A stretch of DNA of 32,000 nt from Candidatus Kuenenia stuttgartensis (GCF_900232105.1 NZ_LT934425.1:4170001-4202000), one strand, 5' to 3'. Positions 11,525 through 30,294 are shown, counted from the first letter of the stretch. Notes: a model not told the origin generated them from the sequence alone. Made by a program: numbers and translations.

Positions 11525-12694
11525 TTACCGTGTACTTTGGTAATATTCACTTAATATCTTTGCAACTTCGTGCCTTGTAAAGGTTGGAGGAGGCGCCTCT
11601 CCCTCGCTTAACATTCTTCGCACCTCAGTGCCGCTTAAGATGACATGATTTGCTGAGTCATGCGGACATGTCTTATAAGACGCCATACCATTGCACGCTT
11701 TACAATAAAATGTATGGTCAAAAAAGAGGGGAGTAATTCCTATTTCATGCGCATCAAATTCATCAAATATATAATGTGCGTCAAACGTCCCGTAATAATT
11801 CCCGACCCCTGCATGATCCCTTCCCACAATGAAATGCGTACAGCCATAGTTTTTTCTCAACAGCGCGTGGAAAACTGCTTCGCGCGGGCCCGCATACCTC
11901 ATTGCCGCAGGAAAGACGGACAACATCGCGCGGTCTTTCGGATAATATTTTTCTAAAAGAACTTCGTAGCTCTTAATCCTGACGTCTGCAGGGATATCAT
12001 CGCTTTTTGTCGCCCCTACCAGTGGGTGCAAAAGGATGGCGTCAACAATCTCAAGAGCACATTTTTGAATATATTCATGCGCCCTGTGAACGGGATTGCG
12101 CGTCTGGAAACCGACAATTCTCTTCCAGCCTCTTTTTACAAACAACTCCCTTGTTTCGGCAGGATCGAGTCTGTAAGCGAGGAAGTCTCCGGGTTTTGCC
12201 CTGTTAACAACACTCACTTTACCGCCAAGAAGATAATCATCCATCTTGTAAACATAATCAACACCGGGGTGTTTTTTATCGTCCGTTCCATACACTTCAA
12301 GCGATTCTTTCGTCTTATCATGATGGAATATCTCTTCCAAATGTAATATGGCAATTACTTCATTTGCTTTATCGATAAGGGCAACATCATTCCCGGGCTT
12401 AAGCCCTTCAATTTCTTCCTTACTCGCCGATAACGTCACGGGAATAGACCAAGGGAGTCCGTTTGCCAGACGCATATTATTCACAACAGTATCATAATCT
12501 TCTTTGCACATGAACCCCTCAAGCGGACTCATTGCGCCAACTGCAATCATATCGAGGTCCGTTATTTCACGGGAATCGAGTTGGATTTTTTTCATGGCGT
12601 AATTTTTCGCTTTATCCAACAACACTTCTCTATCTTCTGCGGAAGCTATCCGGTTTATAAGTTTACCCCCATGTGGAGGGATGTTCTTGACCAT
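11525..12694 (-). CDS. sat: Sulfate adenylyltransferase (ATP sulfurylase)
   Basis: 389 aa with the hallmark motifs [14 protein letters not shown] and [15 protein letters not shown], plus an N-terminal PUA-like domain. Confidence 0.92.
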
Positions 12695-12789
12695 AGTTCA
12701 CTCTTTCTCCTTTCAAAACTGTTTAAATGTATGCGATTTCTCCTGCTTTGCACCTGCTTTTATAAGGAACTAAAATTGTTGCGATAAAA

Positions 12790-13107
12790 TTAATTCCTTA
12801 CCTTTATCACAAATTCTTCTTTTTTCCCATGCGAATTCCAGATTGTCCAGATTGTTTTATCCTTAGTCATCCGTGCTTTTAATGAGGCGCTTTCGCTGCA
12901 AATCTGAAACGGCAATCTCAGTTCGATTGCCTGGACGGGGCATTCCTTTACACAGCAAGCACACGTCCAGCAAGCCGATTGGTCGCGTATTTCCGCTTTC
13001 ATATTTTCCGTACGGTAGCAGAGATTTCCCGGACATATGCGTTCGCAGCGTGCTTCCGGTAATCCTTTACAGCCATTGCAGATGGTTTTGTCGATAAAAA
13101 TGCTCAT
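12790..13107 (-). CDS. aprB: Adenylylsulfate (APS) reductase beta subunit-like 2x[4Fe-4S] ferredoxin, short form
   Basis: CNGCKGLPEARCERICPGNLC and CWTCACCVKECPVQAI parallel the AprB cluster motifs (CDGCKA...C..ICPNDL and CWEC.SCVK.CP). The start overlaps the aprA stop at 13107. At 105 aa it lacks most of the long C-terminal tail of the dissimilatory AprB I recall. Confidence 0.75.
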   Translation of the reverse strand: MSIFIDKTICNGCKGLPEARCERICPGNLCYRTENMKAEIRDQSACWTCACCVKECPVQAIELRLPFQICSESASLKARMTKDKTIWTIWNSHGKKEEFVIKVRN

Positions 13108-14780
13108 TATTGTAAGGGCCGTTCTTTCATCTTTATTTCATTTGTTTCAACGTCATAGACAGAATTTACATACTTAAGCCAGCGATTATCGTCTTTTTGG
13201 GGATAGTCCAATCTGGTTTGATAACACGCCCATCGGGTCTCCTTCCGGTAAATGAGATGTTCCACCAATGTCCTGGCAACATCAATCCGATCGATACACT
13301 CCAAGGCTTCTACGAGGTTGTAACTATCCGCCGCCATCAACTCCGTTGTATGGTTGTGCAAACATTTCAGCAATTGCCGGGCTTCCAGCAATCTGTTTTC
13401 ATGCAACATGTAATTAAAGGAAATACCCCCGGCATATTCATCCATGATTTTTTGAAGCCGTTCTCTCACATCCAATGGTGTTATCCCGTTAGTTCTGTTT
13501 AATAAATTAAAAATCCTTGCCTTTTCCTTTTCAATACTATTTTCGTCAATTTCTTCTGAAGAGACGTTATCAATGTCTTTTAGCGCCGTTAGCGCCGCAA
13601 TAGCGCCTTCAGCCCAACAGCCACTGACATATTTTTTAGGAGCCCCACCGGCGGCTTCGCCAGCGGCATAAAGCCCTGGAATGGTAGTTCTCCTTTCCGT
13701 ATCAATCCAATATCCCGCCTGGCAATGACCACCCACAACATAAGGTTCCGTACCGCGTATTTCAACGGGTTTTTTTCGCGGCTCCATTCCTTCGCTTGCC
13801 CACATAAGAACAATCTGAGGGTTCATATTCAAATAATCTTCTTTTAGTTTCCTTTCTTCTTCTTCATTCAGGTGCGTTGTGTCAAGATAACAAGGCCCAC
13901 GGCATGCCCTCATTTCCTCAAGCGTGGCAAAAAGTCTGTGTTGAGTCAAACATTTTCTTCCGCCCAAATGCTGATAATGGCAGCCAAGATAGTCTTCCCC
14001 CAGCGCATTAACCTGTTTTGAACAAACACCGATCGCAATTGTGCCTGTAGGGGCATTTACGTCTTTTACGCGCAAAGGGATAAACCTGTTCTCAAAACCT
14101 GTCATTTCGGCGCCAATACGAATCCCCATTGCATAGCCCGTCCCGGCATTCCATGGGCAATACCACATCAAATGCCTCGCGCCGCCGGTATTATTAGGTT
14201 TATATATCCCGGCAGCTCCTCCGGTAGCAACAATAACGGCTTTTGCCCGAACTACATATAAATTACCACCCCTGACGTCATAACCAAACGCACCACAAAC
14301 CCGTTTTCCATTATAGATAAAATTTGTCGCAACGACGCGGTTTAACACCTGAGCCGCCGTTTTCCTCACCGCTTCAGCAAGCATAGGCTTCAGCCTTTCG
14401 CCAAAAATGCGAATACTGCGCGTTCCCCGGTTTTTGTAAGAGCCGTCATCATTTTTTTCAATAGGCAGCCCTAACGCTTCCACCTCCTTTACCACGTCAT
14501 TAAATCTTTCCGCCATGGTAAGGACTAAATCTTTCCGTATAACCCCTTCAAACTCCCTCGCAACAAAATCAACGTATGATTCAGGGGTTTGTCCCGGATG
14601 AATATACGCATTAATAGCATTAAGCCCCATCGCCAAACAACCGCTGCGTTCAATATGTGCCTTTTCCATGATAACCACTTTGCAGCGGGAAGATTTTTTA
14701 TAAATTTGCATTGCTGCAAAGCAGCCGGCCGCACCTCCGCCGATAATTAATATGTCTGCATCAATATTTTTAATATCCAT
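13107..14780 (-). CDS. aprA: APS reductase alpha subunit-like FAD flavoprotein
   Basis: It has an FAD-binding N-terminus (ILIIGGGAAGCFAA) and an SdhA/FrdA/AprA-family core (SGCLAMGLNAINAYI, VIVATGGAAG, GLYAAGEAAGG). It is translationally coupled to aprB and adjacent to sat. Confidence 0.75.
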   Translation of the reverse strand: MDIKNIDADILIIGGGAAGCFAAMQIYKKSSRCKVVIMEKAHIERSGCLAMGLNAINAYIHPGQTPESYVDFVAREFEGVIRKDLVLTMAERFNDVVKEVEALGLPIEKNDDGSYKNRGTRSIRIFGERLKPMLAEAVRKTAAQVLNRVVATNFIYNGKRVCGAFGYDVRGGNLYVVRAKAVIVATGGAAGIYKPNNTGGARHLMWYCPWNAGTGYAMGIRIGAEMTGFENRFIPLRVKDVNAPTGTIAIGVCSKQVNALGEDYLGCHYQHLGGRKCLTQHRLFATLEEMRACRGPCYLDTTHLNEEEERKLKEDYLNMNPQIVLMWASEGMEPRKKPVEIRGTEPYVVGGHCQAGYWIDTERRTTIPGLYAAGEAAGGAPKKYVSGCWAEGAIAALTALKDIDNVSSEEIDENSIEKEKARIFNLLNRTNGITPLDVRERLQKIMDEYAGGISFNYMLHENRLLEARQLLKCLHNHTTELMAADSYNLVEALECIDRIDVARTLVEHLIYRKETRWACYQTRLDYPQKDDNRWLKYVNSVYDVETNEIKMKERPLQ

Positions 14781-15200
14781 TTATGGTAACACTTCTGGAG
14801 AAAACATTTTTAGGAAACATCAACATAATCAGAATGAAGCTGGAAAATTAATATGCTATGGATATTTTAATCTACTTTATGAGCGGTAATTTCGATTGTT
14901 CTTACACAAAGACCTTGAATTAAAGCAAGATTCCAGAGTTCATCTTTTCAAAAAATAACAAAGTGCCAATGGTACTTATATTTTATTAATATGTCAAATT
15001 GAAAACGCCCTTCTTCATCAATGTAAATTCGTATTTTTGATTTGTTAAGAAATTATGTAACTTATATTTCTTTATAAATGAACAAATCCTCCTCTATCCT
15101 TCCTGAGAGGTGATCTATCAAATTCTATTCCTGGTAAGGCCTTAAGGGATTGGTAAAATAAAAAATTGATAATGTTTCATGATATTTGTATAATGTGCCC

Positions 15201-15674
15201 ATGCCTATAACGAAAGAATTAGAGAATATACGAAAGTTTGAATCTGTCGGGTTTACTCACGATCAAGCGGAAGTTCTTACAGAGACCCTTGAACAATCGC
15301 ATGTTAACGGACAGCAAAACCTTAAGGATTTTCTTAACATTAAATTTAATGAGATGGACGTCAAATTTAATGCGATGGATGTCCAGTTTAATGCTCTTCG
15401 TAACGATATGGATGTAAAATTTAACGCTATGGATGTAAAATTTAATGTTCTTCGTAATGATGTGGATGTCAAAATTAAAGATTTCCGTAGCGATGTGGAC
15501 GTTAAGTTTAAAGACCTTCGTAACGAAATTGACTTCAGGTTTCTGGAAACCCGTAATGAGATTGTCAACCTTGAGTTTCGCATAAGGGCTTCTCACGCAG
15601 ATTTGCTTATGAAGATATTTGCAATCGTAGCCGGTTGTACCACTATTGCCGTTGCTGTAGCCAAGTTATTTTAA
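15201..15674 (+). CDS. Tail-anchored coiled-coil protein built from short tandem repeats (DUF1640-like)
   Basis: The repeats are MDVKFNA / MDVQFNA / LRNDMDVKFNA / MDVKFNV / LRNDVDVKIKD / FRSDVDVKFKD / LRNEIDFRFLE. The C-terminal TM helix is IFAIVAGCTTIAVAVAKLF. The ATG at 15201 is preferred over the TTG at 15186. Confidence 0.6.
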   Translation: MPITKELENIRKFESVGFTHDQAEVLTETLEQSHVNGQQNLKDFLNIKFNEMDVKFNAMDVQFNALRNDMDVKFNAMDVKFNVLRNDVDVKIKDFRSDVDVKFKDLRNEIDFRFLETRNEIVNLEFRIRASHADLLMKIFAIVAGCTTIAVAVAKLF

Positions 15675-16234: not shown

Positions 16235-17521
16235 TTAGTCATCTACGATTGGACAGACTTGAGAATTTATCCATGTATTAAGGATTACCTCTTCCTTAAC
16301 TCGTGGGATCATTAGTACTATCTTTCCGGATTTTAAAATGAGGCGAAAGGGACGAATTAAATAGTATAGACAGAGCCTCTTTGAGGACAAAGGTACTGAA
16401 AACCTGTTTGAGAGAACTTTTGGATGTGGAAATATTTCTTTAAAGAGAATCTTCACCTTCGTTTGAAATGTATCCGCGATTTGTGACTTGATAAAACTAC
16501 CGGGAACGACGGGAAGAGTATCTTCTCTGATAAGTATTCTTTTATTGATAAGCCGCACTAATTCTTTATTTAAATCCTCTGATTTAAAGCTACTAAGGGC
16601 ATTATGAAAAACGTCATCGTGCTCCCCCATGATTTCCCTTACAATGGAAAAGGTAGTATACATTAGGGTATCTATTCCGTATTTTTCGGTTTCAGACTTA
16701 AACCTTACCCAATCAATATCATCTCTATAATATTTAAGGGTTTGAAAAATATCACACAACTGGATAAGTGCACCTTTGCTACTAAAACCTCCATTTTGAT
16801 TTATAAACCGGTGTTTTAAAAAATGTAGACAGAGGTGAGTAATTAAATCCTCCGGACTGAGTATCTGTACTTTATTGCCAGAAAATTCTATCGTTCTGGC
16901 CTCTTCCCACCACCTTTCAATAATGTCATTAATAATACGAATTCTTACTGGGTGTGCCTTCCTTGCTATGTGCCAGTGAATCTCCACCGGGATATTCTTA
17001 TCTGAATGAACATAACTTATATGCTGGTGATTTTCTCTGTACCAATCCGGTTGCATTTCACCCTGGAAACGATAGTCTAATCCGGACATTATTTTCTCTG
17101 CACAAAGAAGGTCTTCTTTTTTAACGAGAAGGTCTATGTCATTCATTTGCCGTAAACCAATATCGCCATAAACAGTTTTCGCTAAAGTCGCGCCCTTTAG
17201 AACAATAACTTTCACACCTTTATCACAAAATGTCTCTAAAATCCTCTTTAATTCCGCATAAAGGTACATATTCCTGGCTAAATTTCCATGATAAGCCGTT
17301 CTCAACTGAGCCATGACCTCTTGAGGTATACAATGTCTCTTACTGATATTCTTTAAGTTGTGATACAGTAATGGGGCGATACCATGCCAAAAAGCAGAAG
17401 CTAAAACCTCTTCCCAGTTTAACGGAATGTTTATTACATCCTTAATTTTCTCTCCTGTATTCCCTGAGATGCTTGCCTGAAGACAATGGAGTAAGAGCCT
17501 ATTTTCATGTGATATGTTCAT
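16235..17521 (-). CDS. Nucleotidyltransferase of the NTP_transf_5 type found in kinase-associated lasso-like clusters
   Basis: 428 aa. VIVLKGATLAKTVYGDIGLRQMNDIDLLVKKEDL is the typical LKG...R...DIDLLV nucleotidyltransferase motif. It is the last gene of the minus-strand cluster. Confidence 0.7.
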   Translation of the reverse strand: MNISHENRLLLHCLQASISGNTGEKIKDVINIPLNWEEVLASAFWHGIAPLLYHNLKNISKRHCIPQEVMAQLRTAYHGNLARNMYLYAELKRILETFCDKGVKVIVLKGATLAKTVYGDIGLRQMNDIDLLVKKEDLLCAEKIMSGLDYRFQGEMQPDWYRENHQHISYVHSDKNIPVEIHWHIARKAHPVRIRIINDIIERWWEEARTIEFSGNKVQILSPEDLITHLCLHFLKHRFINQNGGFSSKGALIQLCDIFQTLKYYRDDIDWVRFKSETEKYGIDTLMYTTFSIVREIMGEHDDVFHNALSSFKSEDLNKELVRLINKRILIREDTLPVVPGSFIKSQIADTFQTKVKILFKEIFPHPKVLSNRFSVPLSSKRLCLYYLIRPFRLILKSGKIVLMIPRVKEEVILNTWINSQVCPIVDD

Positions 17522-17553
17522 TATCAGCCTCCAGGATAATTTTATCCAATTTA

Positions 17554-18042
17554 CTATATCTTATCAGGGAAACAATACGTCATCGTATAAGTTTTAGTTA
17601 CTTCTGCATTTCTTTCCAGAAAAATATCCCCATGATAAAGAAGCCAGGCATGGCCCTCCAATTTCTTTTTTGCCTCTCCATCAGAGAACCTCCCGTTATA
17701 TCTCACTCCAAAACAAACAAAGACGTTTATTCCCAATTTACGTAAAAAGTGATAAAGAACTAAAGACCGCCTGAGACAGATATTTTTGTCTGTCCAAAGG
17801 TTATGCCTCAATATGTAGTCTGTAAATTTTACGATCTTATCTTTCATGTTTTCCAGGTCTTTGTTACGGCAAACTCTAAAGTTCCGTGGTGCAAGCATCT
17901 TCATAACCCTGGGCAGGGACAAAAATCTGAACAGGAAAGGCAAAACGTTAATCAGGAGAAAAATTCGGGTAAAAAGCCATATCTCCCCGAAGGAGCTAAA
18001 ATGAGTCCTGAATTTTTTAATAGCACAAGTTTTGTTACCCAT
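17554..18042 (-). CDS. Lasso-peptide B2-type leader peptidase (transglutaminase-like cysteine protease)
   Basis: 162 aa with an N-terminal hydrophobic helix, a catalytic-Cys context (NICLRRSLVLYHFLRKLGINVFVCFGVR) and a His context (EGHAWLLYHGD). The start overlaps the PqqD stop by 8 nt (ATGGGTAA). Confidence 0.8.
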   Translation of the reverse strand: MGNKTCAIKKFRTHFSSFGEIWLFTRIFLLINVLPFLFRFLSLPRVMKMLAPRNFRVCRNKDLENMKDKIVKFTDYILRHNLWTDKNICLRRSLVLYHFLRKLGINVFVCFGVRYNGRFSDGEAKKKLEGHAWLLYHGDIFLERNAEVTKTYTMTYCFPDKI

Positions 18043-18319
18043 CTACAACCTTCACTAATTTTTCACGGATAAGTTCATGAATAAGTTTCAGTACACTTTC
18101 TCTGGCCTTTTCAGGTAAAACATCAAATTCATTTTGAATTATTTCGCTTATCTCTCCAGCCGTAAGACCGCTACTGAGCATTTGCCAGATCCGCAGTCCT
18201 GTTTCATTTAAGGTGAAGTACATCTTCGTGCCCAGATGGAGAAGGACGGCCTCTTTGCCCTCTAATTCAGTAATAACAACATCAGGGTCAGGCGTTACCC
18301 TATAATTTAACTCCAGCAT
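18035..18319 (-). CDS. PqqD-family RiPP recognition element (lasso B1-like)
   Basis: 94 aa. VVITELEGKEAVLLHLGTKMYFTLNETGLRIWQMLSSGLTAGEISEIIQNEFDV...VLKLIHELIREKLV matches the PqqD/RRE pattern. The strong RBS aaaggaggt lies upstream. Confidence 0.85.
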   Translation of the reverse strand: MLELNYRVTPDPDVVITELEGKEAVLLHLGTKMYFTLNETGLRIWQMLSSGLTAGEISEIIQNEFDVLPEKARESVLKLIHELIREKLVKVVDG

Positions 18320-18376
18320 CTTTTATCAACCTCCTTTTCAGTATTTCTCGTAATTATTCAATATGAAGTGAAAGAC

Positions 18377-18448
18377 CTCCCATCCCTTCCTATCTGCGAA
18401 GGAGGGGAGATAAGAAGTCCCCCCTTCAAGAGGGGATTTAGGAGTGTG
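18377..18448. repeat. GC-rich double hairpin repeat (copy 3) in the rSAM-PqqD spacer
   Basis: ctcccatcccttcctatctgcgaaggaggggag ... tccccccttcaagaggggatttaggagtgtg. It has two stem-loops plus a GGGGATTTAGGAGTG tail related to GGGATTAAGGGGTGG. Confidence 0.45.
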
Positions 18449-18464
18449 TTTAATAATCTTGATA

Positions 18465-19496
18465 TTATGCAAATATCACTTCCGTCCAAACCATGCGAGA
18501 CCAGGGGTTTCCCGAAAACTCTTTCAGCCAGTCTACCTTCTTAAAATAATTCAAACAGAACCAACAGGGAAAATAATCTGAATCTCTAAATTTACCATTG
18601 CTGTAGTGTTCAAGCTTCTCTTTTTGAAATTTCCCACTAGCCTCAACCAAACTTACATAAGCCTCAGAAAAACTCATCTCATTCAAATTGCCTATTATAT
18701 CATCGTTTCCCACATCTTCTCCATGTCCCGATAAATTACAGCACATGGTGACATTGCCTCGCCAGTCGATGTTAATCTCTTCCATTTTAAGCGAAGCGCA
18801 AGGAAAGAGTTCGGTCGTATAGTATCCCGATGCCATAACAATAGGAATGGAAAATGTTTTCTGGAGCTGACAGATGATAGTTTCTGTTTGCCTTCTTTCT
18901 ATCGGCGAAATGTCCATATTTTCTGATACGATTCGGGGAGTTGAAATAAGATGGCCAAGCCTGAGTCCCCGGCCTCCCAGTTTTGCTGCAAGCATGGCTA
19001 TTTCATTTAATTCACCCCGACTGTGGGACGTAATGACCGTATTGAAGGTGAAGGGAATATCTTTTACCACGCAAATGCTTACTGCCTGCATCACCCGGCG
19101 ATACGAACCCTTTCCACGAAGCATGTCATGTGTTTCCTCCCTTGCACCTTCTAAACTAAAGGTAATTCCAGTAAGACTATTAAGATGCGGGAGCAACTTC
19201 TCATAAATTCGGGTAAAATTCCAACCATTTGTTACAAAGCCAAAGTTATATCCAGCTTCTGATACCATCGTGAGCATCTCGGTAAATCCGGGATGCAACG
19301 TTGGCTCTCCGCCAGTAAAGGAGATGTAATCAAAGCCATGCCCCCTGGCATTCCGGAGAATTCTTTCTAAGATTTCTATTTTCAGGTCTCCGTCACCACT
19401 ATGCCTTCCATCAAGGCAATGATGGCAACTTAAATTACAGCGATTGGTAAGTTCTATCAATATTCCCGGCATTGTAGTATTACTGTATAAAAGCAT
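18465..19496 (-). CDS. Radical SAM enzyme with a C-terminal SPASM/twitch-type auxiliary cluster domain (peptide-modifying type)
   Basis: CNLSCHHC is the CX3CX2C radical SAM motif, and FTGGEPTL is the SAM-binding GGE motif. At the C-terminus, CASLKMEEINIDWRGNVTMC fits CX9-15GX4C and is followed by CWFC (CX2C). The remaining SPASM cysteines are absent, so the domain looks twitch-like. Confidence 0.85.
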   Translation of the reverse strand: MLLYSNTTMPGILIELTNRCNLSCHHCLDGRHSGDGDLKIEILERILRNARGHGFDYISFTGGEPTLHPGFTEMLTMVSEAGYNFGFVTNGWNFTRIYEKLLPHLNSLTGITFSLEGAREETHDMLRGKGSYRRVMQAVSICVVKDIPFTFNTVITSHSRGELNEIAMLAAKLGGRGLRLGHLISTPRIVSENMDISPIERRQTETIICQLQKTFSIPIVMASGYYTTELFPCASLKMEEINIDWRGNVTMCCNLSGHGEDVGNDDIIGNLNEMSFSEAYVSLVEASGKFQKEKLEHYSNGKFRDSDYFPCWFCLNYFKKVDWLKEFSGNPWSRMVWTEVIFA

Positions 19497-19763
19497 CTCT
19501 TCAGCGTAAATATTACACGATTCCCAACGGTTTCAGGTTTACAACCGTTCGGCTGGGCTCACGACGAAGCCTGAACCTATCTGTAATTTATTTGTCATTT
19601 GTTCTGCTAATAGAAGGCTGGATTGAAAGTATAAAACATTTGGTTCAGGTTACAAACCTGATAATCATATAGAAGGCACCTCCGAGCGCACTCTTCATGG
19701 TAAAATGGAGGATACCGTGAAAGGCGATTGTTAAATAATAACAAAGTAAGGAGGGAGCGAGCA

Positions 19764-20780
19764 ATGGGATATTTCGTAGGAATAGATTTACATGGTGATA
19801 ATAATTATATTGGAATACTCGATGAGGAGGATCGGAAGGTATTCAAGAGGAGAAACCGTAATGACATCAATGAAATAAAGCGCGTATTAGAGCCATACAA
19901 AAAAGAAATAAAGGGTATAGTAGTAGAATCGACCTTTAACTGGTACTGGATAGTGGATGGTCTGATGGAGGCAGGCTATCAGGTACACCTGGCAAATACA
20001 TCGGCAATGCAGCAGTATGAGGGATTAAAGTACATTGACGACACGAGGGATTCGTTTTGGTTGGCAAAGATGTTACGGTTAAAGATATTACCAGAGGGAT
20101 ATATTTATCCCAAAGAGACGCGGTCAGTGAGGGATTTACTGAGGAAGCGGATGATGTTGGTACAACAAAGGACAGCGCATATATTGAGTATGCAAACGAT
20201 GGTAAACCGTAACAAAGGAGTACCGATAAGCGGTGATACGATAAAGAAGCTGAGTAACGAAGAGGTAATGGGGATGTTCAGCGACGTGCATTTGACCATG
20301 TCAGCACAGTGCGATCACGAGGTAATAGAGGTATTAAATAAGCAGATATACAAGATAGAGAAAGCGGTATTAAAGGAGGTGAAGCTAAAGAAGCCGTATA
20401 AGAAATTGCTCAAGGTGCCAGGGATAGGCGAAATCCTGGCAATGACGATAATGCTGGAGACTGGGAACATAGAGCGATTTAGTGATGTGGGGATGTATTC
20501 ATCTTATTGCAGATGCGTATCGGCAAAAAAATTATCGAATGGTAAGAGCAAAGGGAAAGGAAACCGTAAGAACGGGAATAAATACCTTGCGTGGGCGTAT
20601 GTGGAGGCAGCGCATTTTCACGTAAGATTTTGCGAAAAGGGAAGGAAATGGCATCAGAGGAAGGCGTCAAAGAGCCATGTAGTTCTGGCAACGAAAGCCT
20701 TGAGCAATAAGCTGGCCAGGGCATGTTATTACATAATAAAGGAGCAAGTAAACTACGACGAGAAAAAAATGTTTGGGTAG
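19764..20780 (+). CDS. IS110-family DEDD (RuvC-like) transposase/recombinase
   Basis: The N-terminus MGYFVGIDLHGDNNYIGILD...VVESTFNWYWIVDGL is the DEDD_Tnp_IS110 pattern. The C-terminal domain (LLKVPGIGEILAMTIMLETGNIERFSDVGMYSSYCRCV...KGNRKNGNKYLAWAYVEAA) carries the conserved Ser-containing Tnp region. The ATG at 19764 with RBS aaggaggga is preferred over the TTG at 19728. Confidence 0.88.
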   Translation: MGYFVGIDLHGDNNYIGILDEEDRKVFKRRNRNDINEIKRVLEPYKKEIKGIVVESTFNWYWIVDGLMEAGYQVHLANTSAMQQYEGLKYIDDTRDSFWLAKMLRLKILPEGYIYPKETRSVRDLLRKRMMLVQQRTAHILSMQTMVNRNKGVPISGDTIKKLSNEEVMGMFSDVHLTMSAQCDHEVIEVLNKQIYKIEKAVLKEVKLKKPYKKLLKVPGIGEILAMTIMLETGNIERFSDVGMYSSYCRCVSAKKLSNGKSKGKGNRKNGNKYLAWAYVEAAHFHVRFCEKGRKWHQRKASKSHVVLATKALSNKLARACYYIIKEQVNYDEKKMFG

Positions 20781-20964
20781 CAAGCAGATTAGGTGGTGCA
20801 AGGAACCGGTTGCGGGTTAGGTAACCAATCCATGAAACCTGATTGGAAGTTGTTCCACCTTTTATTATGAGTTGTGCCGGTAAAGGAATCGGCGAAAAAG
20901 AATATTCCATTCTGATCTGCCCATACCATGAGCCGTGAGGTTTTGGCCGTAGAGCCGAATATTC

Positions 20965-21556
20965 TGTGAATAACGATTGGACACTGGTATGGAACCGATG
21001 GTTTTCTGGGACAGAAGATAAGTCAGGGGCGGTGAGAAAGTCTTTCACAAAGCCTTGATCCCGATGGGTGAATGGTGCGGATGAGAACGATACCAAAACA
21101 ATTGCGAAATACCACGGGCGTAGATAAACGTGAACGGTATAGTCATTTTCGTAAACAGCAGTAAGAGCGATTCCGTACTTGGAGGGGTATTCAAAACGTG
21201 AAAATGTAGATATTTTTGCGACCGGAGATATTTTGTCCTTGACAAAAGCCTTCTAATGAGTGTGAATAACGATTGGACACTGGTATGGAACCGATGGTTT
21301 TCTGGGACAGAAGATAAGTCAGGGGCGGTGAGAAAGTCTTTCACAAAGCCTTGATCCCGATGGGTGAATGGTGCGGATGAGAACGATACCAAAACAATTG
21401 CGAAATACCACGGGCGTAGATAAACGTGAACGGTATAGTCATTTTCGTAAACAGCAGTAAGAGCGATTCCGTACTTGGAGGGGTATTCAAAACGTGAAAA
21501 TGTAGATATTTTTGCGACCGGAGATATTTTGTCCTTGACAAAAGCCTTCTAATGAG
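20965..21556. repeat. Perfect tandem duplication, 2 x 296 bp, in the 3' non-coding region of the IS110-family element
   Basis: Unit 20965-21260 (tgtgaataacgattggacactgg...ccttgacaaaagccttctaatgag) is repeated at 21261-21556 with no mismatch that I could find by eye. The three overlapping minus-strand ORFs beginning MVSFSSAPFTHRDQGF are its translation artefacts. Confidence 0.9.
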
Positions 21557-21687
21557 TGAACCCGCGAAAGTATCTATGCAGCGTAAACGACGCACGGCTC
21601 GTTCCAAAACCTTGTACTAAACATAGTGAAGTATCCAGTTTGGGAATGCTTATGGATAAGCCTCCTGGATTTTCTACGCAGACAATT

Positions 21688-21721
21688 CCACCCCCTTAAT
21701 CCCCCGCCAGCGGGGGACAGG
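21688..21721. repeat. GC-rich hairpin repeat (copy 4, tail on the minus strand)
   Basis: ccacccccttaatcccccgccagcgggggacagg. The stem is CCCCCGC/GCGGGGG and the reverse-complement tail is GGGGGATTAAGGGGGTGG. Confidence 0.45.
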
Positions 21722-21924
21722 CTTGCCACGTCTCTTGCAGCTTTCATGTCGGGGGCATTCCCGGTTTTTTGTGACTTCTGCCATGTCTTAATGAAATGTA
21801 CAGTAGTATCAACCCTGTCAGAGTTGTTTTACCTGTGTTACGTGTGTTCCGTGGTTCCGTTTGAAACCCTGGCCACATGAACGGTTACAAAAAATCGGGA
21901 ATGCTCCTATTTGTGTCTTGGTAG

Positions 21925-22911
21925 CTAAACAATTAAACCTGATAAAATTTCTGAAATTCTCTCCGGCTCTTCATACAAATCGCGTCCTGCAAGGAGTTCG
22001 TAACTATCTGACTGAGATACAAGCCGCTTAATGGCCTCTAAATGTACATTGACCGCCTGACGTTTAAAAAATAGCGATGAACTTTGCCTCATCAATCTTA
22101 TAAAAGCAGTTGTTTTATCTACGGGTATCAACATACTCTCAGGTTGAAGAACTATTTGGGTGTAAATCAATACCTTTGGAAAACAGCTTGGTTGAAATCG
22201 ACCGGGGTAGACCGATTCTACATCTAAAAATCGTTTTGTATGGTTTCCCATTGCTGATCCCTTAAGATGAGGATCTATTTCAGGGAATTGCCGGGACAAG
22301 GCAGGATCAAGATAAAAATGCTTCCGAAAGGCCAGGGATTCTATCCCGTCCGCAGATGATCTAAGAAAAAGGGCATCGTCTGAGACATAGTGCCAGCCCT
22401 GACTGACCAAACTAAGGGCAGTGCTGGATTTTCCGCTCCCTGACTCCCCTAAAAACAGATAGCCCATCCCATCCCTGACAAGCCCGGCAGCATGAAGGTC
22501 GTAGAAACCCCGGGAAGAAAGGAGATGGATAAGGCCGACAAGAAAGAAGTTATACTTCGATAAAGGAGGTTTTTCCTTAAAAGAGCGATGAAGGGTTACG
22601 AGCCCTGTTCCCGCTTGAAGTTGGAGCTGAAAAACGGATAATCCGTCGGTGAGGTAAACGTGACCATCTGCCTCGTAAATCGAAGAATCATAGCCGTTGA
22701 GTGGTTGTGATGCCGTATATGGGATATGCGAGGGGACATCTGTCGCTACGAATTTCAATTCAATGTGAGCAGGCTTACCGCCATTGTATATTTGAGTAAA
22801 GGGGAAGGAATAGAAGAACTGCTCAATTTCATATCCAATCCCTTCCCCTTTCCACTGAACCCCAACGGTTATTTCGTATAAAGAATAGAAATTAACCCCT
22901 GCTTCAGTCAT
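21925..22911 (-). CDS. HPr kinase/phosphorylase C-terminal-domain-like kinase (lasso/RiPP precursor kinase type)
   Basis: 328 aa. LHAAGLVRDGMGYLFLGESGSGKSSTALSLVSQGWHYVSDDALFL is the HprK-like P-loop region, as in kinases that phosphorylate lasso precursor peptides. Confidence 0.75.
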   Translation of the reverse strand: MTEAGVNFYSLYEITVGVQWKGEGIGYEIEQFFYSFPFTQIYNGGKPAHIELKFVATDVPSHIPYTASQPLNGYDSSIYEADGHVYLTDGLSVFQLQLQAGTGLVTLHRSFKEKPPLSKYNFFLVGLIHLLSSRGFYDLHAAGLVRDGMGYLFLGESGSGKSSTALSLVSQGWHYVSDDALFLRSSADGIESLAFRKHFYLDPALSRQFPEIDPHLKGSAMGNHTKRFLDVESVYPGRFQPSCFPKVLIYTQIVLQPESMLIPVDKTTAFIRLMRQSSSLFFKRQAVNVHLEAIKRLVSQSDSYELLAGRDLYEEPERISEILSGLIV

Positions 22912-23131
22912 CTCAACTTCTTATCCTCCCAACCTCTCATCTTCCTATCTTCCCATCCTCTTTTTTATGAGTTTACTTATTATAACTAAATAAAGGCCAA
23001 CAATATAATTTACCATAATAAGTTGCTTTTATTTATCCTGAGGGAAACGAAGGATCTTTCAGAGAAGACCCTTTGCGTTGTCATGGGTAAATGAAACCTT
23101 ACATTATGATAAAATATTTCTTTATTTTCAT

Positions 23132-23308
23132 TTACGGTGTAAAGGTACCAAATAGCCCATTGCCGGTAATTTTGGTTGCATCCCCGTGTTTCGTAAGCTT
23201 TGGTTCTACGAAGGTTAATTTGGGTTCTGCAAAAGGCTTCCTGGCGTGAGAATCACCTATCCCTGTAACTACCTGGCCTATGTGTCCTGCTGAAATTTTT
23301 TCTAACAT
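23132..23308 (-). CDS. Candidate RiPP precursor peptide (58 aa), absent from the ORF track because it is below 60 aa
   Basis: MLEKISAGHIGQVVTGIGDSHARKPFAEPKLTFVEPKLTKHGDATKITGNGLFGTFTP. The RBS AGGAGA lies 7 nt upstream of the ATG, and an in-frame stop lies directly upstream. Residues 33-48 (FVEPKLTKHGDATKIT) fit the lasso leader motif Y/F-xx-P-x-L-xxx-G-xxxxx-T exactly. The gene lies directly upstream of the kinase on the same strand. Confidence 0.65.
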   Translation of the reverse strand: MLEKISAGHIGQVVTGIGDSHARKPFAEPKLTFVEPKLTKHGDATKITGNGLFGTFTP

Positions 23309-23404: not shown

Positions 23405-25330
23405 TTAAGGACGGAATCTGCCAAAGAATCTCTTACCCTTAGTCCTGGATTTTGTTTTCTTTAATTGCTTTTTGACTTGTGATGCATCTGCGCTCGTCAC
23501 TTCCTGATCCGTTTGTTCTTCCGTCTCAAACCCCAACACGTCCACAACAAAAACAAACGACTTGCTCTCCGTTAAGCAAATAATGAAAGTGACATCTACC
23601 GATTCTCCCGGGCTTAGTACACCATCCGCATAAGCATCTGCTGTCAATGGAATGGTCATTGTTGCCCCTTCTCCACCATCCCCTCCGTCTGCATTATGGA
23701 GTAGATTTCCATTTGTCAATGTTTTAACCAAAACCACAAGGCCTGTAAGGGGCGGACTGCTGCTCTTGTTTGTAAGTTTGGCACCAAAGCTAAATTTTCC
23801 AACAAATCCAGGTGGACAATCGGTGGTATCAGTAGTAATCACGTAAGTTGAACGATCCCTTACAAATCTAACAAAGTCATTAACAATCCCTGGGTACTCT
23901 ACTGCACCAATGTCGCATACAACACTACCATCGCCATTGCCATCTGTGCGAGGATTCCCAAGCTGGTCAGTTTGTGTATCAGGATAATCCTGATACACGT
24001 CATTGGCGCCTGCATCAATGGCAGGGCTGGTTGATAGCAGTGGGAAGTGGCCATTGCCAGGTGTCCCGTCATCGGTGAAGGCGCCCAAACCTGAGTCCCC
24101 TGTGAGGTCGCTTGGTTGAAGGATGATGTTGACGTGGCTACCAGTAGTATTGCCAATAAGATTATTGCCCAGTGATATGATATCACCGAAACAATCTTGC
24201 GCCGCCCCTTGTGACGCTGTATTTCCAGCAATGATGGTGTTTTGTATTTTTACGCTTGTGTTTCCTACGGGTGAAGCAATTCCGCCGCCGCCACGGCCAG
24301 CACTGTTTTCGCTGACGGTGCAGTTGATGAGCAAGCATTGTGCTAGAAAATTAACCCATATGCCACCACCATCGTGGTATGGTACAGTGTTATTAGCGAT
24401 TGTGCTGTTAATAATTGTCATCGTGCCGGTTCTGTGGTGTATTCCGCCCCCCTCGAAAACAGAATAATTACCACTAATATCGGTGTTATTTATCGTCAGG
24501 TTTCCAGAATGATTGATGATACCACCACCGCCGCCACCAGTGCCGCCATTGTCAGCATTGTCTTTGACTGTGCAACTGCTTAACGTTAAATCTCCATTGT
24601 TTCCGATTCCACCACCAGCACTAACAGTTCTTCCTATGCTCTGATTGCTGCTGATGGTGCTGTTGATGATTGTCATCGTTCCCAGGTTCCATATGCCACC
24701 ACAACTGGAATGGGCTATATTGTTGCTGATGATGCTACTGGTAATTATTGCCGTGCCTGCGTTATAGATGCCTCCAGCATCGTCACCGGCCATATTGTCG
24801 CTGACTGTGCTATTTTTTATTGTCAGTTTGCCGAGATTCCTGATACCACCGCCGTCATGTTCTGAATCCTCAGGAACTCGTTCAGTAGCAGTAGCACCTC
24901 TCATAACGGTTAGTCCATCTAACTCCAGAGTTCCTGTATCAGCAACATGAAAAATACGAAAAAAAGGTTCACTATCGCTACGTTCGATGATGGTGGTGTC
25001 AGCACCAGCACCTTTTATGGTGATATTGCTTCTGATAGAAGGTAAGCCCGTTGGTCCGTCGGTATGGGTGGTATCGTTATACACATCCGGCAGGGTATAG
25101 GTGTCAGCCGCCATGGTAATCGTATCGGTTCCCGGATGTTCAACTTCATTGTTAGCGTCATTGATTGCATTAATCAATTGTGAAACGTTACTGACAAGAA
25201 AATCAGTAGCATTAATGGTACGTGGCACAGATAGTGCGAAGACTGTGAATGAAATGAATAGCACCTGCGCATACCCCAAATAAGCAAAACTTCCATATCC
25301 CCTTTCCCTTTTGTTCCTTACCGTGTTCAT
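23405..25330 (-). CDS. Secreted right-handed beta-helix repeat protein (PbH1 / choice-of-anchor-Q-like) with a C-terminal module shared with the next gene
   Basis: It has a signal peptide and many GGGI.N.G.LT(I/L).NST(I/V)S.N repeats. The motif DQLGNPRTDGNGDGSVVCDIGAVEY is typical of this domain's end. The last ~160 aa are homologous to the C-terminus of the 25391-30085 product. The RBS AAGGAG lies upstream. Confidence 0.75.
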   Translation of the reverse strand: MNTVRNKRERGYGSFAYLGYAQVLFISFTVFALSVPRTINATDFLVSNVSQLINAINDANNEVEHPGTDTITMAADTYTLPDVYNDTTHTDGPTGLPSIRSNITIKGAGADTTIIERSDSEPFFRIFHVADTGTLELDGLTVMRGATATERVPEDSEHDGGGIRNLGKLTIKNSTVSDNMAGDDAGGIYNAGTAIITSSIISNNIAHSSCGGIWNLGTMTIINSTISSNQSIGRTVSAGGGIGNNGDLTLSSCTVKDNADNGGTGGGGGGIINHSGNLTINNTDISGNYSVFEGGGIHHRTGTMTIINSTIANNTVPYHDGGGIWVNFLAQCLLINCTVSENSAGRGGGGIASPVGNTSVKIQNTIIAGNTASQGAAQDCFGDIISLGNNLIGNTTGSHVNIILQPSDLTGDSGLGAFTDDGTPGNGHFPLLSTSPAIDAGANDVYQDYPDTQTDQLGNPRTDGNGDGSVVCDIGAVEYPGIVNDFVRFVRDRSTYVITTDTTDCPPGFVGKFSFGAKLTNKSSSPPLTGLVVLVKTLTNGNLLHNADGGDGGEGATMTIPLTADAYADGVLSPGESVDVTFIICLTESKSFVFVVDVLGFETEEQTDQEVTSADASQVKKQLKKTKSRTKGKRFFGRFRP

Positions 25331-25390: not shown

Positions 25391-28300
25391 TTAAGGATGG
25401 AATCTGCGAAAGAAACCTTTTCTCATAAGTCCTGATCCTTTCCCGAATTTTGCAAGACCTGGTTTAATGTCTGTTGATTGGAGTTCTGCAACTTGTAAAG
25501 AATCTGTTTGTCCTTCCTTAATCCCCAATACATCCACAACGAAACCAAACGACTTGCTCTCAGTTAAGCAAATAATGAAAGAGACATCTACCGATTCCCC
25601 CGGGCTTAGTACGCCATCGGCATAATCACCAATATTTGGAACAGTCAACCTTGCTCCCACCCCGCCTGGTACTCCATCGGCATTTTGCAATACGTTGTTA
25701 TTCGTTAATTCTACAACCTCCATCACGAGATCCGTAAGCGGAGGGTTATTTCTTTTGTTTTTCAGCGTTGCATCGAAACTAAACTGCCCCACAAACTCAT
25801 CCCCACAACCGGTTGTATCAGAAGTAGTCTGATATGTTGATCGTACAGGTTTAAAGGCAACAAGGTCATTAATAATTTCCGGGCTTGGCGCTGGTGCTTC
25901 TCCAAGGACAATGTCTCCCAGTGCCGATGTATCCAAATAATTATTTGCCGTTCCTATCCAGACAACCTGTCCTTCACGACCCGACCAATCGTCGTCATCA
26001 TTGTATCCCACACTAAAGCCAATGGTCATACCTGCCGTGGGGGTAATTCCCAGATTGCTCCATGGTATGGCCAGTTCTATACTATACCCGCCAGTAATTG
26101 TCGCCCAGGCATGCAATACGTCCGTTTTCTTACCATTTTTTTCAAAAAGTGTTTCATCATTCCATCCTTTAATGAACTGACGATCGTAACTATCGTATGT
26201 CGTACCGTGATTATGGTCGCCGTCAATATAGATCTCCACACTGTCATTTTCATGCACAGACGTTGAGTCATTATAGAGGGTATCATCCAGCACCTTAACA
26301 CCTACGTAGAGGTAGGTATTATCCCAGAGTACCCCGAACGTTGCGGTGTTGTTCGTAGTCCCAATGACCACATTACTCACATCGGTTGCAATGTCCCATG
26401 CCGATTCGTCTAAGTTTCCATCCACGGCTAGATTCAGGCTCACATAAGGCACGGTCACCGGATTTGCGGAAAGATTACTGTCAAACTTTGATACAAAGGC
26501 ATCAGTAGGACCGCCACTATAACCAGCAAGAGAAGGATCATATGCATCAGTGGTTGTTGGAAAGTCTGAAGACCAAGTCGCACCAGTCACATAGACATCT
26601 CCATTTGGGGCTATCGCTATAGACATGCAAAATTCACTGCTAGCTCCTCCAAGATATGTGGATGCAAGGAGGCTGGTTAAATCACTATTGAGCTTTGATA
26701 CAAAGGCATCTTCGTTACCAGTGAGGATGCCGTTAAACGAAGTATCATAGGCGCCTCGAGTTGTTGGAAAGTCTGATGATGAAGTACTGCCAGCCACATA
26801 GACATTTTCCCATGAGTCTATGGTTAGAGAATAGCAAAACTCACCGGAAGACCCTCCAAGATATGTTGATGCAAGGAGTTTTGTTAGATCACCGCTTAAC
26901 TTTGATACAAAAGCATTTGTCCAACCATCTTTAAAAGTATCATAAGCGCTAGCGGTTGTCGGAAAGTCTGCTGAGTTAGTCCAGCCAGCTACATATACAT
27001 TCCCCCCTGAATCTATAACAATAGAACGGCCATAATCCCAATTAGTCCCCCCTAAATACGTGGATGCAAGGATGCTGGCTAAATCACCGCTGAGTTTTGA
27101 TACAAAGGCATCTTCTCTATAAGTACTACCATTGTAAGAAGTATCATAGGCACCCGTAGTTGTTGGAAAGTTTGGTGATGAAGTACTGCCAGCTACATAG
27201 ATATTTCCCCCTGAGCCTATGGCAATATCCTGGATCACCCCTCCGTTCAGAGATTTGGAAGCAATGAGGTTTGTTAATGTATCATTTAGTTTCAACACAG
27301 CAGAACCACGAGCCACATAGATATTTCCCCCTGAGTCTATGGCTATCGAATCGCCTGAACCCCAGCCAGATCCCAAATATGTTGAAGCAAGGAGGTTGGT
27401 TAGATCATTACTGAGCCTTGCTAGAAAGGCACTACCGGAAGTATTATAAGCGCCCGGGGTGGTTGGAAAGTCCGATGACAAAGTTTCACCCGTCACATAT
27501 ACATTCCCGCTTGCATCGAGGGCGATAGCATTACCATAATCATCGTCAGAACCCCCCAGATACGTGGATACAAGGAGATTTGTTAAATCGCTACTTAGCT
27601 TCGATACAAAGGCATCATGACCACCATTAAAAGAAGTGTCATAAACACCCGAGGTTGTTGGAAAACCTGACGTACTAGTCGAACCTGCTACATATACATT
27701 CCCACTTGAGTCAATAGTTACAGAAGTACCGTAATCAAAGCCACCGGAAGACCCTCCTAGATATGTGGATGCAAGAAGGTTGGTCAAATCACCGTTGAGC
27801 TTCGATACAAAGACATCATAACCATCATTAAAAGAAGTATCATAAGCACCCGGAGTTGTTGGAAAGTCTGATGACCAGGCCGAACCAGTTAAATATATAT
27901 TCCCGTTTGAGTCTATGGCTATAGCGCTAATATATCCTCCACTATCTCCATATCCTCCACCCAAATATTTTGAAGCAAGGGGGCTGGTTAAATCACCAGT
28001 AAGCTTCAATACATTAGAACCACCCGTAATATATACATTCCCCTCTGAGTCTATGGCTATATCATTGCCAGCATCACTGGCAACCCATTCCAGATATGTG
28101 GATGAAAGGAGAGTGGTTAAATCACTATTGATCTTTGATACGAAGACATTAAAATCATAATAATCATCAAAATAAGTATCATAAGCACCTGGAGTTGTTG
28201 GAAAGTCTGTTGATCCTGTTGAACCAGTCACATAGATATTTCCCCCCGAATCTATGGCTATAGCATTACCAGAATCTTCGCCATCTCCTCCCAGATAGGT

Positions 28301-30085: not shown

Positions 30086-30294
30086 TTTACCATCCTCCAT
30101 TATTGATTATATGAAAACCCGTATCTCACAACGCACACTACTTTGAAACTACAAAATACTTTGATACGGAACATTGGCCAGCCACAAGGGTTGCGGCGCT
30201 ACATTTCCATGCTTCCCCATGCGCCCTTAGGGAATGAGGTTTTTTGCAAATATTCATTAAAAAACCTATAGCATATAGCATATTAAAAATAATT

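Follow-up and report, generated by a model that had tools for sequence, protein, structure and literature searches.

A stretch of 32,000 nucleotides (nt) from the genome of Candidatus Kuenenia stuttgartensis (GCF_900232105.1, NZ_LT934425.1:4170001-4202000; hereafter, the window) carries a minus-strand cassette encoding a small precursor peptide, a P-loop kinase, a radical SAM (S-adenosylmethionine) enzyme, a PqqD-family protein, a B2 protease and a nucleotidyltransferase. The organism is an anammox planctomycete; the radical SAM protein shares 99% identity with a Kuenenia entry, and exact copies of the other proteins occur in Kuenenia genomes. We consider that this cassette represents a conserved pathway of the RiPP (ribosomally synthesized peptide with post-translational modifications) type, known from genes alone, which reuses the leader-handling module of lasso peptide clusters without yielding a lasso product. 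We assign this reading a probability of about 0.7, and the cassette is likely to constitute a new RiPP class. Recruitment of the lasso leader module into a radical SAM-based pathway was proposed in a first-pass annotation made from the sequence alone, and this interpretation is now supported by profile hidden Markov model (HMM) searches, by the absence of a cyclase and by synteny across phyla. The seven open reading frames (ORFs) of the annotated region lie at the coordinates and on the strands originally given, with the start of the B2 gene overlapping the stop of the PqqD gene by 8 nt, and the proposed families (NTP_transf_5, B2, PqqD, radical SAM with SPASM, HprK-like and IS110) agree with the HMM results. 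The features of the cluster and of the adjacent genes for secreted proteins, in window coordinates, are as follows.

23132-23308, minus strand: precursor peptide, 58 amino acids (aa), with a tandem FxEPKLT leader unit, a lasso-type FxxPxLx3Gx5Tx motif and the core GNGLFGTFTP
21925-22911, minus strand: HprK/ScmC-like P-loop kinase, 328 aa (P-loop and DD motif; ScmC-matching homologues)
19497-21924: spacer between the kinase and radical SAM genes, 2,428 nt, containing the IS110 insertion (gap comparison with other loci)
19728-20780, plus strand: IS110-family transposase, 350 aa (NF033542)
18465-19496, minus strand: radical SAM enzyme with a probable twitch/partial-SPASM C-terminal domain and without an N-terminal RiPP recognition element (RRE) (Pfam, Cys motifs, structure comparison)
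18035-18319, minus strand: discrete PqqD-family RRE, B1-like, 94 aa (Pfam PqqD, TbiB1 match)
17554-18042, minus strand: lasso-type B2 transglutaminase-like cysteine protease, 162 aa (NF033537, conserved C89/H131/E143)
16235-17521, minus strand: NTP_transf_5 nucleotidyltransferase-fold enzyme, 428 aa (Pfam, invariant G110 and D128-x-D130)
23405-25330, minus strand: secreted beta-helix/choice-of-anchor-Q protein, 641 aa, whose C-terminal domain (CTD) and precursor-like tail (ending GKRFFGRFRP) are encoded at ~23405-23920
25391-30100, minus strand: secreted SBBP/CBM9 protein, 1,569 aa, with the same CTD and the tail DIKPGLAKFGKGSGLMRKGFFRRFHP, encoded at ~25391-25918

Gene neighborhoods were examined in Scalindua, Loosdrechtia, a Kuenenia sister species, one metagenome-assembled genome (MAG) each of Nitrospiraceae and Dehalococcoidia, and 20 or so further reference genomes, and 26 non-redundant loci were surveyed by iterative HMM searches. 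The shared gene order is small peptide(s), kinase, radical SAM enzyme and PqqD, often followed by B2 and the nucleotidyltransferase. It recurs in the 26 loci and in at least six phyla, namely, Planctomycetota (anammox bacteria), Nitrospirota, Chloroflexota, Deinococcota, Acidobacteriota and Proteobacteria, which bears out the expectation of synteny in other genomes and leads us to reject chance juxtaposition of these genes. The radical SAM enzyme is present at all 26 loci, PqqD at 25, the kinase at 24, the precursor at 20, the nucleotidyltransferase at 17, a CTD-bearing protein (within 7-10 kb) at 15 and B2 at 13. Since B2 and the nucleotidyltransferase are found in only about half to two-thirds of the loci, whereas the kinase is nearly universal, the latter is a core partner rather than a peripheral tailoring enzyme. 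The initial view, which placed the kinase among the tailoring enzymes, is refined accordingly; B2 and the nucleotidyltransferase are accessory. In several phyla, the cassette stops after PqqD and the next genes are on the opposite strand, pointing to a minimal system composed of precursor, kinase, radical SAM enzyme and PqqD. At most loci, the kinase gene overlaps the radical SAM gene or closely adjoins it, with intervals ranging from -29 to +57 nt, which suggests translational coupling.

Two other families were encountered repeatedly in the survey. A GNAT acetyltransferase is encoded in or beside the cassette at five loci (L001, 9221-9763; L004, 11348-11878; L006; L013; L025), and an unknown family of ~180-aa proteins recurs at five (L005, L006, L011, L012 and L013). 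Both may represent extra tailoring or accessory genes.

The cassette differs from lasso clusters in lacking the Asn-synthetase-like cyclase. Consistent with what had been noticed for the 32 kb, Pfam identifies no such protein (PF00733) among the window ORFs of at least 328 aa, and no ORF of at least 300 aa with an SGGxDS PP-loop is present in 27 loci, the rest of the genome not having been searched. The precursor agrees with this picture. The region following the KIT of the leader, GNGLFGTFTP, contains neither Asp nor Glu, as first reported, and acidic residues at core positions 7-9 occur in only eight of the 135 cores compared. The test for a cyclase or an acidic core in orthologous loci, set beforehand, has therefore revealed neither a PP-loop protein nor a generally acidic core. 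Accordingly, of the hallmarks of lasso clusters, the window has the B2 protein and the leader pattern but neither the cyclase nor the acidic core residue.

Homologues of the precursor were collected by an exhaustive profile search over 1.84 billion representatives (E ≤ 0.001), yielding 215 cluster representatives, nearly all of 45-90 aa. In the alignment of 49 close homologues, the leader has 13 invariant columns. Its FxEPKLT unit is present in tandem, and the second copy together with the following residues forms the lasso leader pattern FxxPxLx3Gx5Tx, which reads FVEPKLTKHGDATKITG in the window precursor (YxxPxLx3Gx5Tx being the pattern that defines lasso leaders). Among NCBIfam models, lasso_cyano matches all 49 close precursors and lasso_leader_L3 matches 45 of them, in each case weakly and below the cut-offs. 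The C-terminal core motif is GFFGxFxP, with GLFGTFTP in the window, and the commonest core is (A)GFFGTFSP. The 135 cores have a median length of 10 residues; FFGxF is found in 93 and a C-terminal Pro in 78. Motif position 5 is mainly Thr or Ser, position 7 mainly Ser or Thr, and no core is without a Ser, Thr or Tyr; Cys is present in five. The motif is anchored at the C-terminus. Taken together, these features exclude both lasso and thioether (sactipeptide or ranthipeptide) chemistry; the sactipeptide and ranthipeptide assignments were rejected on the Cys count. Conservation of the core across phyla is unusual among antimicrobial RiPPs. The precursor search also retrieved a 242-aa sequence (P0242) consisting mostly of tandem STFAEPRLTF repeats, with six matches to the FxEPKLT leader unit; it represents either a poly-leader protein or repetitive DNA translated spuriously.

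The radical SAM enzyme, with 587 homologues at E ≤ 1e-10, is matched by the Pfam models Radical_SAM (78.2 bits) and SPASM (23.2 bits; gathering threshold, GA, of 21.5). It has the C20x3C24x2C27 motif, and C142, C233, C252, C253, C311 and C314 are invariant. In the auxiliary region, these residues form the pattern C233-x13-G-x4-C252, C253, C311-x2-C314, and the full seven-Cys SPASM motif is absent. Judging from the sequence, the C-terminal domain is twitch-like, probably with a single auxiliary cluster. The protein thus displays both defining traits of radical SAM SPASM/twitch peptide maturases, that is, the CxxxCxxC core and a C-terminal auxiliary-cluster domain. It opens straight at the CxxxCxxC core and hence lacks a built-in RRE. 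Translation probably begins at Met9 (position 19472). The AlphaFold2 (AF2) model (predicted local distance difference test, pLDDT, of 84.6) is closest to the structures of BlsE, SkfB, SuiB and PqqE (TM-scores of 0.58-0.66), and SkfB and PqqE come first among solved homologues detected at the sequence level.

The RRE would be supplied by the separate PqqD protein, which scores 60.4 bits with Pfam PqqD and has the lasso B1 protein TbiB1 as its best match in the PDB (E of 2.7e-6). The B2 protein is recognized by Transglut_core3 (40.6 bits; GA of 26) and by the NCBIfam model lasso_biosyn_B2, NF033537 (47.2 bits; cut-off of 33); C89, H131 and E143 are conserved in 13 homologues, and no solved homologue is detectable by sequence. 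The HMMs thereby assign the 94-aa and 162-aa proteins to the PqqD and B2 families, as the earlier proposal required. The nucleotidyltransferase gives 216 bits with Pfam NTP_transf_5 (E of 7e-64), with G110 and D128-x-D130 invariant in 16 homologues. In the kinase, the P-loop G155-x-S-G-x-G-K161 and D178-D179 are kept in 23 homologues, and its homologues bear precomputed matches to PF27840 (ScmC). Given these conserved motifs, the radical SAM enzyme, kinase, B2 and nucleotidyltransferase all look catalytically competent.

Based on homology, the following pathway can be envisaged. The discrete PqqD/B1-like RRE would bind the lasso-type leader of the 58-aa precursor, in which the tandem FxEPKLT units are followed by a Thr located two residues ahead of the putative cleavage site. 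The RRE would then present the GFFGxFxP core to the twitch/SPASM radical SAM enzyme for a radical-mediated change in the Phe-rich motif. The chemistry of this step is a conjecture, the best guess being an intramolecular cross-link (a three-residue cyclophane or another C-C or C-O link) at F-G-T and/or F-S-P. The HprK/ScmC-like kinase would next phosphorylate a hydroxyl of the core. Finally, in lineages such as Kuenenia, the NTP_transf_5 enzyme might decorate the phosphate, similar to PsmN in pseudomycoidin biosynthesis, and the B2 cysteine protease, activated by the RRE, might take off the leader. Conservation of the core across phyla and the genomic linkage to secreted CTD proteins argue for a product directed at a conserved partner and against a fast-evolving antibiotic.

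The cassette has obvious similarities to several known systems and matches none of them. With the lasso clusters of paeninodin and pseudomycoidin it shares the discrete PqqD RRE, B2, the FxxPxLx3Gx5Tx leader, the HprK-like kinase (PadeK/PsmK) and the NTP_transf_5 enzyme (PsmN). In pseudomycoidin biosynthesis, PsmK phosphorylates the C-terminal Ser and PsmN decorates the phosphate (PMC9266682). Unlike these clusters, the Kuenenia cassette has no Asn-synthetase-like cyclase and no acidic ring acceptor. Furthermore, its core ends in Pro rather than Ser, with Ser/Thr in the penultimate position or at motif position 5, and the one invariant modifying component is the radical SAM enzyme, with the kinase belonging to the core set and B2 and the nucleotidyltransferase being optional. 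Transglutaminase-like proteases of family C96, to which B2 belongs, have been reviewed for lasso peptides only (PMC10885120). The uncharacterized SynChlorMet (SCM) cassette of TIGRFAMs/NCBIfam also combines a ScmC-like P-loop protein, a PqqD homologue and a radical SAM/SPASM enzyme. However, it contains two radical SAM/SPASM enzymes (ScmE and ScmF), whereas the loci described here have one each, together with an identifiable lasso-type precursor and, often, B2 and the nucleotidyltransferase. A radical SAM enzyme without a built-in RRE, encoded beside a discrete PqqD, also recalls the PqqE/PqqD and MftC/MftB pairs, which, together with the twitch/SPASM maturases SkfB and SuiB, are the closest relatives in sequence and fold. 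Their similarity to the Kuenenia enzyme is limited (identity of only 14-22%, TM-scores of ~0.6-0.66), they differ in the Cys pattern, here Cx13Gx4C(C)...CxxC, and the GFFGxFxP core has no Cys, Glu/Tyr pair or C-terminal Tyr. The best NCBIfam match of the enzyme is the mycofactocin maturase MftC (score of 81 versus a cut-off of 265), and PqqE scores 61 versus 381; thus, neither match reaches the equivalog level.

In RiPPs with three-residue cyclophanes (triceptides), aromatic-x-x motifs are cross-linked by radical SAM/SPASM enzymes. The Phe-rich core with its two aromatic-x-x triplets, F-G-T and F-S-P, and the radical SAM enzyme with an RRE partner resemble that family, from which the presence of Gly at position 5 in some cores sets it apart. 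To our knowledge, the kinase, B2 and nucleotidyltransferase have no counterpart among triceptides.

Public records annotate the components singly, as 'lasso peptide biosynthesis B2 protein', 'PqqD family protein', 'radical SAM/SPASM' or a hypothetical peptide, and name no system. The first-pass annotation knew of no characterized example of the combination. Full-text literature searches returned no description or characterization of the cassette, but the association with radical SAM enzymes had been partly noticed bioinformatically: in the RRE-Finder study, ~300 discrete lasso RRE matches adjoin radical SAM enzymes and were treated as false positives (PMC7470986).

Several observations weigh against a RiPP pathway built on the lasso leader module. 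The product and every catalytic step are predicted from homology. The kinase scores 31.8 bits with Hpr_kinase_C, slightly under the GA of 33.3, with the P-loop and DD motif intact. PqqD falls below the cut-offs of the lasso-specific NCBIfam models (48.8 versus 80 and 45.5 versus 70), and the radical SAM enzyme stays far below those of all named NCBIfam radical SAM families, MftC, ScmE/F and PqqE included. Nor do the cassette proteins reach the SCM equivalog models ScmC, ScmD, ScmE and ScmF (24.5 versus 125, 32.9 versus 100, 63.6 versus 400 and 71.3 versus 400, respectively). No transporter or cyclase family recurs in the surveyed loci, so that a conserved exporter is missing. B2 is missing from half of the loci despite conservation of the leader Thr there, implying that B2 does not serve as a general leader-removing protease. 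Between the leader Thr and the FFG motif, the spacer length ranges from 1 to 10 residues. In addition, a Phe-to-Cβ link at the triplet concerned cannot be universal, since eight cores have Gly at motif position 5. Finally, the IS110 insertion in the window, although it leaves the ORFs intact, splits the operon, and the four downstream genes may be uncoupled or silenced.

The 641-aa and 1,569-aa secreted proteins encoded upstream of the precursor have a C-terminal domain of ~110 aa in common, a region which in both proteins lies outside all Pfam and NCBIfam matches. The AF2 model of the CTD is a confident β-sandwich (pLDDT > 90). Foldseek comparison with the PDB retrieved only generic β-sandwich matches (TM ≤ 0.37), from which no function can be transferred. 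The domain is always terminal and is joined to many different N-terminal parts. Genes for CTD proteins are located within 7-10 kb of the cassette at the 15 loci mentioned above, often directly upstream of the precursor gene, and 22 of the 27 CTD ORFs point the same way as the cassette. Several, from different phyla, lie ~100-1,000 nt upstream of the precursor gene, and at locus L012 the CTD gene is inside the cassette. Besides the two regions of the window listed above, CTD regions were located in L003 (2192-3676 and 5496-8207) and in the locus of the Kuenenia sister species, L085 (1-8288).

A tail of ~40 aa, with GFFGRFRP or GFFRRFHP at its end, follows the CTD in Kuenenia, L085 and Loosdrechtia; outside this one anammox sub-lineage, CTD proteins end right after the domain. 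Two of the tails align with the precursor without gaps, including the PxLxxxG and Thr positions: AIKPSLTKFGKGSGVTRKGFFRRFHP versus FVEPKLTKHGDATKITGNGLFGTFTP and ...MATRISGNGFFGRFRP versus ...DATKITGNGLFGTFTP. Ungapped BLOSUM62 scores for the CTD proteins of Kuenenia, Loosdrechtia and L085 are 52, 52 and 37, as against maxima of 31 for the background (189,395 26-mers) and 18 for other C-termini (n = 680), and none of 100,000 shuffles reached the observed values. The C-terminal expression [FL]F..F.P.?$ is found in four of the 684 large ORFs, all four being tailed CTD proteins. The precursor HMM gave one marginal match among the large ORFs (E of 0.029), and tail homology therefore rests on the ungapped scores and the C-terminal expression. 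In the AF2 model, the final residues of the tail form a β-strand (pLDDT of ~70) beside the confident CTD, lending weak support, at the level of a model, to docking of the tail onto the domain. The tails are most simply derived from a precursor gene that fused with the CTD gene directly upstream, and their retention at the exact C-terminus of several paralogues suggests that they are used. We tentatively raise the possibility that the lasso-type RRE, radical SAM and kinase machinery is coupled to large secreted proteins through the CTD, with the built-in precursor tail being either modified or cleaved by the same enzymes or docked onto the domain.

This raises the question of whether the cassette is chiefly a maturation or partner system for the secreted CTD proteins, in which the enzymes process the tails, or the peptide or tail binds the CTD (for example, by strand addition), the free peptide then serving as ligand, cap or regulator and not as a natural product in its own right. 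The frequency of CTD proteins near the cassette, where they are the fifth most frequent family, ahead of B2, speaks for such a role, as do their shared orientation and proximity to the precursor, the tail scores above background, the restriction of the C-terminal expression to tailed CTD proteins and the modeled strand. On the other hand, a nearby CTD gene is lacking at 11 of the 26 loci, the tails are confined to a single sub-lineage and may merely record a precursor-CTD gene fusion, AF2 confidence for the tail is low, and the enzymes reside in the cytoplasm, whereas signal peptides are present on the CTD proteins. On balance, we regard this explanation as doubtful, yet the most credible of the alternatives.

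Production of a peptide-derived small molecule or cofactor akin to PQQ or mycofactocin is improbable. Here, the invariant motif, once cross-linked by the radical SAM enzyme and PqqD, would be cut out by a peptidase and receive a phospho- or nucleotidyl handle from the kinase and nucleotidyltransferase. Like PqqA and MftA, and unlike typical antimicrobial RiPPs, the core is conserved across phyla; the mycofactocin maturase is the top NCBIfam match of the radical SAM enzyme, PqqE is among its best solved homologues, the PqqD partner is discrete and a conserved exporter is lacking. However, the scores far under the MftC and PqqE cut-offs, the lack of a conserved downstream oxidoreductase or dependent enzyme at the loci and the absence of the peptidase from half of them speak against this scenario. 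A degenerate or split lasso cluster, with the cyclase lost or encoded elsewhere and the radical SAM enzyme acting in tailoring, would account for the lasso-type leader, for the B1 and B2 proteins and for a kinase and nucleotidyltransferase of the paeninodin/pseudomycoidin type. It is largely refuted, and we deem it very improbable, because the cyclase is found in none of the 27 loci from at least six phyla, the motif is anchored at the C-terminus behind a variable N-terminal spacer with few acidic residues at positions 7-9, the core, often of 8-10 residues, is too short for a ring and a threaded tail, and the minimal cassette has no B2. A conserved RiPP-type pathway with borrowed leader handling thus remains our preferred reading.

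The transposase located between the kinase and radical SAM genes belongs to the IS110 family, as it contains the Pfam domains DEDD_Tnp_IS110 and Transposase_20 and scores 170.8 bits with NF033542 transpos_IS110 (cut-off of 140). In the IS-free L085, which has the same genes and ~84-94% nucleotide identity to the window in aligned blocks, the corresponding spacer is 423 nt, as opposed to 2,428 nt. The C-terminus of the kinase and the N-terminus of the radical SAM enzyme agree with those of orthologues; the insertion is thus intergenic and breaks no ORF. The ends of the element are undefinable from the L085 comparison, in which the spacers are unalignable save for one shared part, a 20-nt palindrome, GGTTCAGGTTACAAACCTGA (window 19642-19661, L085 9949-9968), which may be a REP-like hairpin acting as an IS110 target. 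Just downstream of the transposase gene, a 296-nt unit is perfectly (100%) duplicated in tandem (20965-21556); this could belong to the element, have arisen by recent duplication or reflect an assembly artefact. Neither the plasmid collection searched nor Rfam (bridge RNA, for instance) yields a match to the spacer, and a scan for promoters and terminators gave counts near those of shuffled sequence, without a clear operon signal.

Other genes of the window were noted in passing. Just downstream of the cluster, a sat/apr-like trio on the minus strand (11525-14780) encodes ATP sulfurylase, a small ferredoxin-like protein and a FAD flavoprotein; this arrangement is kept in L085 and is probably unrelated to the cassette. 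A 162-aa ORF (15186-15674, plus strand) has internal DVKFNAMDVKF-type repeats, a C-terminal hydrophobic helix and a weak CCDC90-like match. The ammonium transporter (Amt) fused to a histidine kinase (HisKA and HATPase_c; 1248-3287, plus strand) resembles what we take to be the known Kuenenia type of ammonium-sensor kinase. Finally, a Druantia DruA-like N-terminal region and DDE_Tnp_1 transposase domains occur together in a 460-aa ORF (5931-7313, minus strand).

If the proposed pathway is correct, it would show that the lasso leader module composed of B1 and the C96 protease B2 is portable and can be wired to radical SAM chemistry. It also brings to light an unusually conserved eight-residue core, GFFGxFxP, found in at least six phyla, including the environmentally important anammox bacteria, and explains part of the 'false-positive' lasso RREs reported by RRE-Finder. 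Should the link to the CTD be functional, RiPP enzymology would be joined to the biology of cell-surface or matrix proteins in organisms difficult to grow in culture, and surface proteins of full length, in anammox and other bacteria, would be the substrates or the binding partners of a RiPP-style system.

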